This document shows positions 13,384 to 30,000 of a stretch of 64,000 nt of DNA, one piece after another. The position numbers were made by a program, and so were the translations under genes. Below the pieces are notes generated by a model. That model had not been told where the DNA came from. It made no database searches and saw only the letters and a list, made by a program, of their open reading frames with translations. The stretch comes from Phyllosticta citribraziliensis. Its lineage: Eukaryota. Position 1 is the first letter of the stretch; each line of letters opens with the position of its first letter. The DNA is taken from NCBI RefSeq assembly GCF_038025025.1, contig NW_027117343.1, positions 2,294,001-2,358,000 of the forward strand, written 5' to 3'.

Positions 13384-15590
13384 TCACCTGCCAAACCTCT
13401 TCAGCTCCAACCATCTCAGCGGCGGATACACCACGGCAGCAAAGGCAAAGCCGACGTAGTTGCCCAAGTCTCCGCCGTCCTGCCCTATCTGCTTCGCTAT
13501 GGGCCCAATGTACCACACCTGGGCCATGCACATGATTGCGCCGACCCAACCTACGACAAAAGCCGTGAATGCGGCGTATCCCACGGGCAGCTTGTCCTTC
13601 TTGTTCCACGCAGTCCAGTCATAGCCCGTCTTCCAACGAAATAGCACGTGCTCTTCCAAAGTCAGAGCGATCCAGATGCAGACCCAGTAGCCCATGAGGG
13701 CAAGGAAATTCGTAAAAATTGAAGAAAGGTGAGCGCGGCCGACAGCTGCGCAGATGGTGTACACGATGACGCCGGCCGTGTTCCACAGTGCCCGAGGCAC
13801 GCGCTCGGCCCACGATCCCAGGATTTGTACGTCCACGCCGGCGCTGTACGTTGGTGGAATGAGGTTGGAAATGAGACCGAGCGCGATGACGACGCCGCAG
13901 AATTTGCCAAAAATCCCGAGCGGCGCGAAGGCTTCGACGATCAGAGCACCTTGCGACGTCTCGTAGGCTTCAGCCCAGTCCGGATTGCTGGCCATACCGC
14001 TCGCGAGACCAATGCCGAGAATGTAGACCATGGTGAAGCTGGATGTGAGACCCCCGTAAGTCACAGCAAAGACTTTCCAGCCCGGTGTGTTTGAGGGATA
14101 GTAGACGAGGTAATCGCCCGCTTCGCCCGAGTAGGTCACTGCCGCGGAGAGGCAGAGCGAGAAAAACGAGATGCGGTTGCCGATAAGAGTGCGAGTGTCG
14201 GGGGCCGAAGACGGTGTGGAGGTGTCGAACTTGGGGCCCGCGACACCCGCCAGAATGCTGAGAACTACGAGTTGCGGGAACCAAGCGTATTTCTCGTACA
14301 TGTGGAAGACGGAATAGCCAAACGTCGTGACGAACCAAGTTACGATAGCCACTATTACGATGCCGACGACGATGGAGAGGTTCGACGACGAAACGTGGGA
14401 GAGGACCTGGCCTGCGACCACGCAGTCGATGAGAGAGTAACCGAGCAATACGATTATATTGAGCGAAACGACAACCTTGGCCGGGTAGTGTCCCATGGTA
14501 TAGCGCGACTGTGCATGTGAGTTAATTGCGCAAATAGTGAGGGGTTTGGGCACTCACAAATATCATGGTCCTGTTGCCGGAACGTGGACCAAAGGTGGCG
14601 GTGTAGGAAGTGGCCAAGCAGCCGACCATCATACCAAAAACCGCACAGAGGCAGCTGTCCTTGAAGCCGAGAGAGTATACCGAAGGACCGAGCATCCCGA
14701 GTGTTATGTTATTCGCTGCGAGGTTGATTGCGAACCACAGAATCGCGACCTGCGAGTATCCCAGATTTCGCAAGTCATGTCGTTCGTGCTCCTCGACGCG
14801 CTGGATTCCGCGAGTTTCGAAATTGTATTCCGTTAGAGTGGCCTCGACGGTTGTGATCCAGCTCTTGCCCTTCTCCGTGGTAGCCGGGGGCGAAACATCT
14901 TTGTAGTCGACCGCTGAGGCTGTCTCGTCCGGCAAAGGCAGACAAGGCAAGATGCCTCTCTCAGGATCCGGCGCCCCGGGTACGCGAAGGCTGCTCATTG
15001 CACCCTGGAAACAGTCAGCACGTGGGACTCAGACAGGACAGAGGGGAAGCGCGCAGCATGCGTCCTTTCGCTAGAATTGTCTAGATCAAGTTCAACCGTA
15101 TCTCTCAGAACGACGGTTCCGTACCCGAGCCACGACTCCTACAGCAGAGAGAGTGCTGGAAAGAGTGTAACGCGCGGCAGAGCCATCGAACACCGGTCTC
15201 ATGCTGATGCTACCTTTAGATACCTTGATCCGAAAGCTTCATAGGGCGATTGGTCTGCATTCTGCCTTCCAGGTCGTACTTTGGGTTTAAGTCAAATCGA
15301 GAGGAGCAATTCCGTCGGCAAAATGCAGAGAGAATTTCTGGAAGAATGCGCCGCAGGCGATGTAAAGGGCCACAAGCTTTTTCGTCGGCTGACAGCTGTG
15401 CGGCTTGCAGTGACATGAATCAGAAGGTCTTGTCATGGGAAATGGTACAAGAAATTCTCCGGTACCGGCCCGGCAGGCATTAAACTATCTGTGCATGAGA
15501 TCTCCGTCGATCAAGCGATCTCCGAGATGCTCTCCAACCAATATAACACAACATACAGGTACGTACCCAGTGTGCACTGGATGCTGACAT
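13384..15590 (-). CDS. NCS1 purine-cytosine permease family transporter (FCY2/TPN1-like); predicted exons 15590-15567, 15004-14558, 14508-13384 (531 aa)
   Basis: ETRGIQRV, LWFAINL, GPRSGNRTMIF-SRYTMG, YEKYAWFPQ, DYLVYYP, VPRALW, NFLALMGYW, LPVGYAA, YPPLRWLE; about 12 hydrophobic segments. The 24-nt first exon splices in frame (GTACGT 15566 ... GCTGAC ... CAG 15005). The start at 15590 is less certain than the family call; ATG 14998 is the fallback. Confidence 0.9.
15054..15206 (-). ncRNA. TPP (thiamine pyrophosphate) riboswitch aptamer, intronic
   Basis: Minus strand reads CAGCATGAGACCGGTGTTCGATGG...(long P3)...CCGTCGTTCTGAGAGATACGGTTGAACTTGATCTAGACAATTCTAGCGAAAGGACGCATGCTG. P1 CAGCATG/CATGCTG, P2 GACCG/CGGTT, P3 CGATGG/CCGTCG, conserved CTGAGA, AACTTGAT, P5 CTAGA-CAAT-TCTAG, GCGAAAGG. 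Confidence 0.95.
15218..15236 (-). promoter_or_regulatory. Anti-aptamer element overlapping the proximal 5' splice site (AAG|GTATCT at 15223)
   Basis: CTTTCG-GATCAAG-GTATCT is complementary, block by block and in order, to aptamer AGATAC, CTTGATC and CGAAAG. Confidence 0.75.
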
Positions 15591-15706
15591 GGGGTTTGTT
15601 GTAGTCCACTGTTGGGCTATAAATCCACTAAACGCCGTTTCCATGCGCCCAACTCAGGCCGCCGTCGGCCGGTGGTCAGCCAAGCTTCTTGAAACGCCCG
15701 ATACAC

Positions 15707-16949
15707 TCAAAAATCGCTTTGTTTGATGACTACCAGCCGTAAGCATGTTTCTGAACACGGGAGAGCCATACCTACAGCCAACCTTCATGTTCTCCACGTC
15801 GAAAACACTGTAGAATGCTGAAAAGAATTCTCGCCCCAGCACCATGCAGCTTCCTCTTTGGGCTGATAGGACGGATCCTGAGTGGACTCTCACTGCGCAC
15901 ATTGTTTGTCCATTCTCTTCATCTTCGATCGCGTAAGCATAGTCGAATGCGGTCAGCTTGTATTCATTCTGAGCCAGCCCGATGGTAATAATGGGCAATT
16001 GTTGCCGGTGGTTGCAGGGAAAAGTAATCGTGTCGGCTGTAAATCCAGATTCCGGAGGCGAGTCAAGTGCGTTGAGTATATTCTGTAGAAATGGTCGAGG
16101 GAAAGCAAAGCCCGGGAAGTTGAAGTCGAGTTCGGCAGTGCAGTTCTCAAGCTGCACGACCAAGGAGAATCCGGAGTCAATGTGCCCGAGATATTTGGCC
16201 TCGACTGCCCAGCCGAGGGTTTCCGATGGAATCGTAGGCATCATATCGACGTCTTCCAATCTCAGCCCATGGTCCAATCCACCGAGTGTCAGCTGTCCGG
16301 ACTTGTGACCTTGCGGCAATTCGACGCCGAAGATATTTTTGTCGAGGTGACCCGCGTCCACCATGCCTGTGAAGAGGGATGACGAATCCGCGAATGAGCG
16401 ACCAAATTTCAAACCAAATACACCATGAGGGCCGGCAGAGCGTGAGTGGGTTCTTGAATGCACCCAGGTAGCTTCAGTGAAGGTCTTGTTCCAAGTGCCA
16501 TTTTGTCCAAAATTAATGACATCCCGAGCAAGGTGTCCTCGGTACAGTGTCTCTCCCCATGATATCTCCGGAATGGTAGGTCCTCTCAGGTAGGTCGAGG
16601 ATTGGTTGCTCTTGAAAACGTTCGAGTCTTCACGCCCCCGATTCCTCGATCGAGCTTTCGCACGACATGAGGCCGTTGGAACGATGAAAATGTTAGAGGT
16701 CAAATCAGGTACCATGCGAACTTTTTGCGCAGGGGTGCCAATGCCGAGCTCGAGCGTTAGCAATGAGTCCCGAGGATGCGCTCTTTCCCTCTTCCCCTGT
16801 CCAGCACCGAGTGGATGTTGAAGCAATGACTGGTCTTGTTTAGGATTTTCTAAAGATGCTGAATCATGAAGCCATTCAATCGGTATTCTCAAAATGGCGG
16901 CGTGGGCAGCTCCTGAGAGCAACAGAGAAAGGTGGAAGAATTTGAGCAT
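15707..16949 (-). CDS. Secreted pepsin-like (A1) aspartic protease homologue with degenerate catalytic motifs; intron 15775-15730
   Basis: Signal peptide; LGIGTPAQ, FKSNQSSTY, GVFGL, GQLTLGGLD, FPCN, VLGREFFSAFYSVFD, KVGF after splicing. DTG motifs read DLTS and DFNF. Confidence 0.8.
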
Positions 16950-27051: not shown

Positions 27052-30000
27052 TTTGCCAATTGAAGCCTGTCCATGATGTGTGTGTGCTGTGCAGCTGCAG
27101 CACGGCTCTGGGGACCGCCATCCGCGTTGCAAGGAAGATGGGGGACGGAGGACCAGCCGGCCTTGCCTGCGCGACGGCGCACCGTGGCCTGGCAGCAGCC
27201 ATTGATGGATGGTGGCATAGAGCGGTGACATATCACATCGGCCAGCTCGACGACCAAGAAAACAAAAATTATCGAGGTGGCCCCGCTGGATATGGCGTGC
27301 AAACAAGCACCAAAGCCAGGTCGCAAGCCACTGGTCGACCTGTTGACGATCGCCGGAGCCGTCCAGCAAGCCAAACCGCATTGCCGGGACAGCAGCAGCG
27401 TGTCCAGCCAGGTCCGCGTCGCTCGACTGTACCGTACCGTACCGGTCCCTCGAGTCTAGAGCCCTCGCCCCCGGTAACGCCCATCCAGCCAAGGGGGTCC
27501 AGCTTCATGACACGACGGTCAACGGCCTTTTCTCTCCCTTTTCCACTCTGCATGTCATTTCATTCTGTCGATTTTTTTTTTTTTTTTCTTCCTAAATTTC
27601 CTTCTTGTATTTTTCTTGCCGCCATGACGGTGTCGATGTCTTGCTTTTGGCCTGTTCTCCGACCCAGCGGCTGTCTTCGCTGCCCCTCGCTGCTTTTCTC
27701 CTCTTCCCCGGGCACCCGGCATCTTCCACCACCACCACCACCTCCACCTCCACCAACGCACCACTGCGGCGACCTGCACGCTTGACCTTAGCGGACCCCA
27801 GTTCATGCAGCTTCGCTTGTCCCGTACGGTTCATACAGTACATACACGCATGTATGTATCGTTTTGTATCATGTAGACATACCACACACTCCCGGCTGGC
27901 TCACCGCGTTTTGATCTCTCGTCTCGATTCTCATCTCCCTCCATGTATGCAATGCAGTGCCGTTGCCGCCGCCGCCTGTCTGTGCTTGCTGCTGGTCTGT
28001 CTGCTGGTACCACCACCACCACCACCACCACACGCCTACATTGCCATTCCGCTCCCATGCCGTGCGGCAGCCCCCGCCGCGCAGTGCCCCCAGTGCGGTC
28101 AGGCTTGTGCCACACCCGTCGCCTCGGTGGTGGTGGACGCGCATCACGTTGTAGGTAGACAGAGAGTGTGTGCCCACCACCACCACCACCACCACCACCA
28201 CCATTACCATCGGCAGATGCCCCCATTCGCGCGCGCGCAGATGACCAGCTTGCTTGCTTGCTTGCGTGCGTCCCTGCCGAGATATGTAGGCTATACGTGT
28301 CCATCGTCATCTGCCCTTTACTCCAACCTACGTGTATACCAGCCAGCCAGCCAGCCAGCCGCGCATACGCGCGCGACGTGACACAAGACATTAATGTATC
28401 CGATAATGTATCCGATGACAACACTCACGCTGTCAATCAGTCTGTCAGTCTGTCAGTTGGACCCTTCCCCAACCACCACCATTGCCTACGTTTCTAGGTT
28501 AGCCACATCACGCAGACAAATATGCGTCGTGTGCACAAGATGCAGCAGCAGGCAGGCCTTGGCTCCGGGGAGAGACGGAGTGGAAGAATGGGGCCAGGCA
28601 CGTACGCACCCGAGGCGAAAAAGGGCGCCTGGCTGGTTCGATGATGCACCACGCCACGTCGTGTGTGAAAATGACTGCAGCGCGCAGCACTGCGCTGCGC
28701 TGCGCTGCGCTGCGCTGCGCTCCCCTCTTCGCTTCCCGCCGACCACGAGTGGTAGTTAGCGAGCGGTAGAAATCGTTGCTGACCAGTGAGTGGTGGCGCG
28801 GCAAGAGGGGAACAAGAGAGCGGCTAAGTACCCAGTCGATGGCGCAGGCGACACCACGGAGGATGGATGCAGGGGCACTTGATTGAAATCCAGCCCCAAG
28901 CGTTCATATGGGGAAATGGAATCCTGATGTATTTCTGCTGTTGTTGCAGTTGCTGCAGCCCCGACCATCCATCCAGCTCACTGGGGGATATTTACAGACG
29001 CCAAGGGAGTGGAAAGGGAATACCAGAGACGTTTGATTAGCCCTTCTCTCGGCGAAATTTTGGTTGCTTTTGGTTTGGACGTAGTCCGAAAGTGTCCGGT
29101 GTTCGCGATGACTGGAGATGAACGAGTCGTCGACCAAGGAGAAAATAGAGATCAGTGGACTGAGGAACACACGCGACACGACTAAAGCACCCGTGATGAG
29201 GTACCGAGTTCAGATGCACACCAAGGAGATAGAGAGAGTGGAAGAGATGCTGAAATATAGTCGAGTGACAGAGAGAGAGAGGGGAAGAGAGAGAGACGAA
29301 GTATCCCAGAAAACGCCGGCTTCCCCTTTTTTGCCAATGTGAAAAATAGGAAAAAGAGGAGAAGAAATCCTTGACCGTCTCTACTCACGCGCGTGTCGTC
29401 GCACGCCATGGTCTCGAGGCCACTATGTATGTACAGAACGCTTTCAAAGATAACAGCAACAACTACAGCGACGGGTTCCAGAGAGACTGCGCAATGATGA
29501 ATGGCAGAGAGAAGGAGAGGTGAAGCCGGATTGCAATAATCGCTGGCCGCTCTCAAACCACTCGCTGCACAGCTGGCAGAGAAGGTTTAGTATGACCAGC
29601 AAGTACGCGGACTCCCAGTGCCTCGTCTGTCGGCATGCCTTGGTCTCTAAAGCACTTGCGCATCGCTTGCTCGTACTCGCTCCATCGCTCGCGCGCTCGC
29701 TTGCTCATTTGTTTGCAACAAAATCGCTTCCGATCACGTCGAGGGAAAGCAGACTCCTTGACCGAAAGGTCGAAATGACGACAATGAAAAGCGTAGAAAT
29801 TACAGCAACGAGAACGCGGAGAAAGGAGAATCAACCCAAAAAGACAAGGGGACTGCAACGACCAAAAAACAAGAGCAAATGTCGTCGCTTCGTCCTTCGT
29901 GATACAATCAATATTAGAGGACCGTAGCCGACACCATTGAGACGCCAGAAAACCCCGCAGTTCCCTTGTCGCAATAACTCCAGTTCCCAGGCCGGATCTC

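Follow-up and report, generated by a model that had tools for sequence, protein, structure and literature searches.

Gene and predicted riboswitch at the permease locus

A stretch of 64,000 nucleotides (nt) of Phyllosticta citribraziliensis DNA (contig NW_027117343.1, positions 2,294,001 to 2,358,000; called the window, in which all positions are counted) carries on its minus strand a gene for a permease of the NCS1 (nucleobase:cation symporter) family, the leader intron of which encloses a predicted thiamine pyrophosphate (TPP) riboswitch and starts at a 5' splice site, S2, covered by a 19-nt stretch complementary to the aptamer (Table 1; slashes mark splice sites). The main AUG is located at 14998, 6 nt past the acceptor UUUCCAG/G (15006-15005), and removal of the 49-nt coding intron keeps the reading frame open. 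NCS1 family signatures were found over the length of the protein: PF02133 matched exon 1 with 31.5 bits (cut-off 23.5) and exon 2 alone with 21.1 bits, below the cut-off, while TIGR00800 (ncs1) matched exon 2 with an E value of 3.9e-23 (profile positions 82-444 of 447) and exon 1 with 4.2e-09 (profile positions 2-81). Because the exons were scored apart, each fell under the TIGR00800 whole-protein cut-off of 353. A search for solved structures related to the permease by sequence gave no match. Its sequence motifs, together with Donovan 2018, suggest that the permease may be of the Fcy/Tpn1-like subtype. It probably serves the uptake of thiamine or a precursor.

Table 1. Positions of the permease gene, the aptamer, the anti-aptamer and the candidate splice sites in the window
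Feature	Position	Strand	Basis or remark
NCS1-family permease gene, 521 codons, one 49-nt coding intron (14557..14509)	13384..14998	-	PF02133, TIGR00800
Leader intron, 219 nt, S2 GUAUCU to acceptor UUUCCAG/G, encloses whole aptamer	15005..15223	-	RNA joint, two relatives
50 nt absent from aptamer-retaining contigs, same acceptor as S2 intron, GC..AG in window letters	15005..15054	-	RNA contigs, one relative
Branch-site-like UGCUGAC, A at 15015, 10 nt before acceptor	15014..15020	-	Sequence context
TPP riboswitch aptamer (predicted), long-P3 fungal type	15054..15206	-	Minimum free energy (MFE) fold, RF00059 match
P1, 7 base pairs (bp), CAGCAUG with CAUGCUG	15206-15200:15060-15054	-	MFE fold
P2, 5 bp, GACCG with CGGUU	15198-15194:15098-15094	-	MFE fold
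P3, 78 nt	15188-15111	-	MFE fold
P4, 3 bp, CUU with AAG	15090-15088:15067-15065	-	MFE fold
P5, 5 bp, CUAGA with UCUAG	15084-15080:15075-15071	-	MFE fold
Anti-aptamer, 19 nt, CUUUCG-GAUCAAG-GUAUCU	15218..15236	-	Spans proximal donor S2: exon AAG 15226-15224, intron GU 15223-15222
Aptamer block 1, CGAAAG (J5-4 and P4 3' strand)	15065..15070	-	Complements CUUUCG
Aptamer block 2, CUUGAUC (P4 5' strand and J4-5)	15084..15090	-	Complements GAUCAAG
Aptamer block 3, AGAUAC (after CUGAGA, into P2')	15098..15103	-	Complements intronic GUAUCU of S2
Candidate distal donor S1, CAAA/GUACGA, upstream of both upstream AUGs	15274..15279	-	Motif and NMT1-like distance
GUAGCA in AAAG/GUAGCA, GT at 15213	15208..15213	-	Present in sequence; no joint in 4/4 runs
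Upstream open reading frame (uORF) MQTNRPMKLSDQGI, AUGs at 15260 and 15242, stop UAA 15218-15216 if unspliced	15216..15260	-	Sequence

Aptamer and complementary stretch at the splice donor

On the minus strand, 15236..15218 reads CTTTCGGATCAAGGTATCT and is the exact reverse complement of three aptamer blocks taken in colinear antiparallel order, with GGTTGAA and TAGACAATTCTAG looped out between the blocks on the aptamer side. The AAG/GT exon/intron boundary of S2 falls at 15224/15223, inside this stretch, and the donor GUAUCU, in which the customary G at +5 is missing, is fully complementary to AGAUAC. The complementarity had been pointed out in an earlier note on this DNA, and a letter-by-letter comparison verified it together with the loop-outs. 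The note had further ascribed to the stretch the P4-P5 pairing of the Neurospora crassa NMT1 riboswitch. That part stood for blocks 1 and 2, which lie in P4/J4-5, but AGATAC belongs to the CUGAGA-GAUAC junction beside P2', and as judged from the letters the three-block helix pairs with the P4/J4-5 strands plus that junction. Complementarity of P4-P5 nucleotides to the proximal 5' splice site, a mark of NMT1-type (Type I) riboswitches, is present at this locus. The aptamer extent implied by the note was too small, the element reaching from 15206 to 15054 with its 78-nt P3.

For the chance expectation we took the longest contiguous stretch that exact complementary blocks, each 6 nt or longer, could cover with aptamer-side gaps of at most 20 nt. 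Under this rule the longest tiling elsewhere in the window (both strands, ~127,000 starts) was 14 nt, against 19 nt observed. When blocks of at least 5 nt were allowed, one four-block chance match of 21 nt was found at 27812 (+), together with a few of 16-17 nt. The 19-nt complementarity is clearly unusual, and because such matches exist under the looser rule its chance figure is only ~1e-5 per start, which is not astronomically small. With the 3' half of the aptamer, the 22 nt around the donor were predicted to form a duplex of -16.9 kcal/mol, a value reached by 6 of 500 mononucleotide shuffles.

All five aptamer helices were recovered in unconstrained folding of 15262..15000, and the conserved core CUGAGA ... 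UGAAC-YUGAUC-P5-GCG-AAGGA of TPP riboswitches is present along with them. An Rfam search of the whole window at the gathering score gave no match, and a permissive search of 501 nt matched RF00059 at 15138..15046 (33.1 bits, E 9.2e-05), with CUGAGA and UUGAACUUGAUCUAG...CUAGCGAAAGGA aligned at high posterior probability. By core and fold the element is a predicted TPP riboswitch.

Splicing of the leader intron in relatives

Four of 17 public runs with near-identical sequence were examined: X5 and X12 (RNA-seq, one study), X3 (organism B) and X7 (organism D). A net 49 nt were absent at the coding intron in contigs of all four runs, and the contigs are therefore RNA-derived. Record 11 of X7 (57 nt, depth 48) and record 5 of X3 (1657 nt, depth 117.1), which also contains the coding sequence (CDS), join 15003 to 15223 with CT..AC ends on the plus strand (cut +1); read on the minus strand, the segment removed is an intron 15223..15005 bounded by GT..AG. 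The donor inside the 19-nt stretch is therefore real in two relatives, in agreement with the earlier note, which had placed a splice donor there. Unspliced contigs were found alongside (X3 record 6, depth 15; X7 record 10, depth 24.5). The aptamer thus located lies within a 5'-leader intron with its acceptor just before the main AUG, the arrangement of NMT1-type riboswitches. CTRAC is the branch-site consensus, and the UGCUGAC upstream of the acceptor resembles it.

Record 8 of X5 (depth 15, side 199) and record 2 of X12 (depth 16, side 171) instead join 15003 to 15054 (1-nt ambiguity, alternatively 15004..15053 missing), and these contigs retain 15054-15252 (X12 to 15224) and with it the whole aptamer. 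The 50-nt gap starts inside the 3' strand of P1 and ends exactly at the shared acceptor. It may mark a third donor under the control of P1, or the 50 nt may be deleted from the DNA of that relative. Record 3 of X12 (210 nt) was rejected as a product of this locus: it matches 15068-15101 only, has loose ends on both sides, and is another riboswitch's core.

Conservation of the intron region exceeds that of the CDS 2- to 7-fold in three relatives, when differences are counted per contig piece and not per position: 1/150 for 15103-15252 in X3 (organism B; ~5% in the CDS), 7/199 for 15054-15252 in X5 (~7%) and 18/276 for 14977-15252 in X7 (10-13%).

Comparison with NMT1 leaders

Metagenome contigs were scanned with a 24-base P4-P5 pattern, which yielded 15 loci, 12 fungal (L001-L008 and L010-L013) and 3 bacterial (L009, L014 and L015). 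The 12 fungal loci are followed downstream by ATGTCGAC.GA.AAGATTAC..., a protein start that we read as NMT1/THI5. Eight of them were analysed, L004, L008, L011 and L012 being omitted as apparent near-duplicates. The pattern scan of these contigs did not find an NCS1 ortholog, and a protein-guided scan gave 599 pattern matches, none (0) encoding a relative.

Between the window and the eight NMT1 loci, 48 columns from CUGAGA to AAGGA are invariant, a figure that is partly circular because the loci were picked with a pattern from the same region. P2 shows a compensatory difference, with GACCG:CGGUU in the window versus ACGG:CCGU and GCGG:CCGC in the NMT1 loci. The eight leaders have GATCAAG/GTAACG as proximal donor (apart from the L010 donor given below), a P1 starting with GCATG, and an upstream AUG (uAUG) 21-22 nt before S2 (19 nt in the window). 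Their distal donor is GCA/GTATGT, or ACG/GTACGC in L013, and a single GT[AG]NG is found 57-62 nt upstream of S2 in the six with enough upstream sequence (L001, L005, L002, L003, L007 and L013).

GAUCAAG stands opposite CUUGAUC in all NMT1 loci, so that block 2 pairs with the exon end of S2 there too. An A-to-G change in GAUCAAG in L005 and L013 keeps the pairing with the invariant CUUGAUC as G-U, one pair of GAUCAAG:CUUGAUC is broken in L002 and L003, and the intronic GUAACG of L001 and L005 pairs with a CGUUAU or CGUUGC stretch before GAAC. On these alignments block 2 is common to the window and the NMT1 leaders, and blocks 1 and 3 are the window's own extensions. With its similar uORF peptide and S1-S2 spacing (56 versus 57-62 nt), the cassette of candidate S1, uORF, S2 and aptamer may have a common origin with the NMT1 leader intron or be a copy of it moved to a transporter gene, the alternative being convergence via pairing constraints.

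The uORF peptide of the window, MKLSDQG, resembles those of L001 (MKLSHDQG) and L005 (MKPSHDRG). The sole short-P3 fungal NMT1 locus, L010 (471-769, minus strand; RF00059 53.9 bits), has GTATCA as proximal donor and, like the window, ACAAUU as P5 loop, the other NMT1 loci having GTAACG and AUAAUU.

Candidate donors and upstream open reading frames

Six GT dinucleotides occur in 15420..15200, and GT[AG]NG is fitted by the one at 15279 alone, 56 nt upstream of S2. The uAUGs downstream of it differ in context, that at 15260 (AGAaugC) having A at -3 and that at 15242 (CCUaugA) being weak. In the S2-spliced mRNA the uORF continues through the junction and over the main AUG in another frame, stopping 38 nt beyond it; by sequence alone, the proximal-donor mRNA thus carries a uORF that would block the main ORF, as in NMT1-type systems, which is consistent with the earlier note's description of this product as non-productive. 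Unspliced RNA adds three uAUGs. Splicing from 15279 would leave no uAUG downstream of 15416, and splicing from 15213 would end the uORF at a UAA 8 nt before the main AUG.

For a second donor and for the RNA junctions to 15005, the earlier note had named 15213 beside 15223. The 15223 junction was seen in contigs of two relatives and the letters AAAG/GTAGCA are present at 15213, but joints from 15213 were found in none of the 4 runs, the site is without a G at +5, and a second GT at the equivalent position occurs in 0 of 8 NMT1 leaders. From motif and distance, the partner donor of S2 is most likely the distal GTACGA at 15279 rather than 15213. The note's observation of the complementary stretch was confirmed, and its interpretation partly supported.

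Two competing folds

The aptamer and anti-aptamer folds were compared by forcing either the 19 anti-aptamer pairs or the aptamer in three sequence contexts. The respective energies were -59.7 and -60.6 kcal/mol in 15240..15050 (difference 0.9), -74.7 and -79.1 kcal/mol in 15262..15000 (difference 4.4), and -86.5 and -88.1 kcal/mol in 15300..14990 (difference 1.6). The MFE structure in the last context (-89.4 kcal/mol) itself holds blocks 2 and 3. P3 and a 4-bp P5 are retained in the anti-aptamer fold, and P1, P2 and P4 are lost. A switch tipped by its ligand requires two conformers of similar energy, as here with 1-4 kcal/mol between them.

With a closed aptamer, the released anti-aptamer forms a weak local hairpin (15212-15237) with the GU of 15223 in a 6-nt loop and that of 15213 in the stem, a prediction that would fit use of 15223 over 15213. 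In the 311-nt fold the candidate distal-donor region pairs with the acceptor region (15262-15283 with 14996-15036; no control), through CCUGGA 15273-15268 with UCCAGG 15009-15004 and AGGCAG with CUGUCU, and in larger folds with the aptamer closed the 5' flank also pairs with the acceptor region. These long-range pairings are helices of 4-6 bp, computed without a control; they could bring S1 near the acceptor or be due to chance.

Proposed mechanism

The N. crassa NMT1 TPP riboswitch was reportedly described by Cheah et al. 2007. According to Li & Breaker 2013 (PMC3597705), P4 and P5 nucleotides of the NMT1 and THI4 riboswitches block a 5' splice site without TPP, the precedent that the earlier note had cited correctly for ligand-free masking of the proximal donor by P4-P5; the high-TPP product carries uORFs, and the validated fungal cases are OFF switches. 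A review (PMC7404189) adds a concomitant repression of the branch site. Type I, as defined by Mukherjee et al. 2018 (PMC5882874), matches the NMT1-type platform.

The locus is best read as an NCS1 permease gene with an NMT1-type ('Type I') TPP riboswitch in its leader intron, which acts as an OFF switch with an anti-aptamer over S2, and we give this reading a probability of roughly 0.7. Without TPP, 15236-15218 would pair with CGAAAG, CUUGAUC and AGAUAC, so that P1, P2 and P4 would be broken and S2 (15223) buried from -13 to +6. Splicing would then take place from the distal donor, most likely GUACGA at 15279, both uAUGs would be removed, and the mRNA would be translatable. Upon binding of TPP the aptamer would close and S2 would be freed, and splicing from 15223 to 15005 would keep the overlapping out-of-frame uORF, turning the permease down. 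The analysis establishes the complementarity, the computed aptamer fold, splicing at S2 in relatives, its consequences for the uORF and a design shared with NMT1 leaders; we infer that the switch depends on TPP and that S1 is used, as well as the direction in which the gene is regulated and what the permease transports.

The leader-intron position of the aptamer and the P4-P5 pairing with the proximal donor are as in N. crassa NMT1. Where NMT1, as far as covered by the sources used, has a distal donor above its uORFs, a proximal product retaining them and OFF switching, the window has a candidate S1 and a switching behaviour that would follow the same scheme. Unlike NMT1, the host gene codes for an NCS1 permease, the helix is longer, with 19 contiguous nt in 3 blocks reaching AGAUAC after CUGAGA, and the donor is GUAUCU instead of the GUAACG of the NMT1 loci.

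TPP riboswitches on Ascomycota 'nucleoside transporter' genes, some of them Type I, have 27 mentions in Supplementary Data S1 of PMC5882874, in the portion used; the Type I cases involve the cytosine/purine permease class, a 5'-UTR intron, two donors and a uORF, an arrangement that the window would share if its candidate S1 is a donor. Riboswitch genes similar to Tpn1 and Fcy21 are recorded for several Pezizomycotina in the sections used of Donovan et al. 2018 (PMC5997356). No anti-aptamer at base-pair level and no RNA evidence for the transporter class is described in the portions of PMC5882874 (Fig. S4 apart) and PMC5997356 drawn on here, and where the Type I transporter catalogues in these portions provide coordinates and a generic model, the window provides a model at base-pair level. 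NCU01977/DUR31 (Li & Breaker 2013) is likewise a fungal transporter gene with 5' splice-site choice, under TPP repression that in the window would be expected by the model. In NCU01977/DUR31, however, a ~530-nt pairing of an alpha element with the P1 3' strand promotes a distal donor in an internal intron, whereas the pairing in the window is local (~115-170 nt), uses P4/J3-2 segments and covers the donor itself.

If the OFF-switch reading holds, fungal riboswitch-controlled permeases, so far merely catalogued, would gain a testable model at base-pair level, and the permease would be a candidate transporter of thiamine or a precursor in filamentous fungi. The locus would also be of use in studying splice-site choice by eukaryotic riboswitches, as a naturally occurring version of the NMT1 lock that is longer and touches a second aptamer arm. 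The general picture of how such switches work is unchanged, and the class of transporter genes is already catalogued. Such transporter riboswitch genes are reportedly also the subject of Moldovan et al. 2018, for which that work is cited by Donovan et al. 2018.

A more far-reaching version, which we regard as doubtful and put forward tentatively, is that this lineage elaborated the NMT1 design into a 19-nt lock on both sensor arms, with a drifted donor and a third donor embedded in P1 (15054). The three-block lock would seize the pyrophosphate-sensor arm (P4/J4-5) and AGAUAC on the pyrimidine-sensor arm, GUAUCU having drifted from the consensus to fit, and the third 5' splice site in the P1 3' strand would use the same acceptor, giving an mRNA that retains the whole aptamer in its leader. 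Formation of P1 would then gate a donor directly, and the retained riboswitch could act again at translation.

Alternative explanations

Several results weigh against the OFF-switch reading. The RF00059 match (33.1 bits) missed the gathering threshold of 54.3 bits. In a calibration, scores of 32.5-38.6 bits were obtained for six long-P3 NMT1 riboswitches, 53.9 for one with a short P3, and 59.1 and 68 for two from bacteria. The low score arises because the aptamer exceeds the Rfam alignment, the long P3 insert being unspannable by the model, and since undoubted long-P3 NMT1 riboswitches score in the same range, a sub-threshold score is normal for this architecture. The whole fold was no more stable than shuffled sequences (z -0.46; 62 of 200 shuffles equally stable). 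Constrained folding, which the earlier note had proposed, placed the anti-aptamer fold within 0.9-4.4 kcal/mol of the aptamer, but the mean probability of the 19 pairs in the ligand-free ensemble was only 0.01-0.24. The NMT1 loci do not carry blocks 1 and 3 in register, and comparative support therefore extends to block 2 only; the aptamer blocks themselves are invariant, which leaves no covariation signal for the anti-aptamer. All RNA evidence comes from relatives that are 90-99% alike and not from the strain of the window. Splicing from 15279, or from another donor upstream of 15224, appeared in 0 of 4 runs, so the productive isoform is one that we infer, and the dominant contig of one relative keeps the aptamer and is without 15054..15005, a product not predicted by the model.

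Since no S1 joint was seen in the four runs, S2 might be the sole leader donor, the mRNA working via leaky scanning and the anti-aptamer tuning intron retention, or the riboswitch acting on the branch site or acceptor. Such an arrangement would agree with X3 and X7, which show S2 joints and unspliced contigs only, the X3 joint lying in the main CDS contig, and with the weak context of the uAUG at 15242. We consider it unlikely: the uAUG at 15260 has A at -3 and opens an ORF overlapping the main AUG, a GT[AG]NG is present at the S1 distance of NMT1 leaders, and masking of S2 without TPP would lower a presumed thiamine-uptake gene under scarcity, opposite to every validated fungal case in the portion used of Li & Breaker 2013 (PMC3597705). 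The extended complementarity could instead be incidental, only the GAUCAAG:CUUGAUC core or nothing mattering, with blocks 1 and 3 as by-products of the uORF and the weak donor, or with the switch in decay. The lack of register of these blocks in NMT1 loci, the four-block 21-nt chance match under the looser rule and the non-significant fold z-score would all be explained, but the rule that gives 19 contiguous paired nt here gives at most 14 elsewhere in the window, conservation of the region exceeds that of the CDS 2- to 7-fold in three relatives, the non-consensus GUAUCU complements AGAUAC exactly, and the two folds are close to isoenergetic, which makes this explanation quite improbable. Least probable is a toggle between two donors 10 nt apart, 15223, whose uORF overlaps the main AUG, and 15213, whose uORF stops 8 nt before it and would permit some reinitiation. 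AAAG/GUAGCA does exist just beyond the 19-bp helix, and its isoform would close the uORF with UAA ahead of the main AUG, but an 8-nt spacer is very short for reinitiation, GUAGCA is without G at +5, its joint is absent from all four runs, and a second GT at this place is missing from all 8 NMT1 leaders.

Transcript ends and the upstream neighbour

Contigs of X5 and X12 are uncovered at 15256-15645 and uninformative on transcript ends. The RNA contigs of X3 and X7 continue from 15223 into the region of the upstream neighbour, and the transcription start of the transporter gene could therefore not be placed. This neighbour, on the same strand (15657-16949, minus), encodes a eukaryotic aspartyl protease (PF00026, E 9.1e-32).

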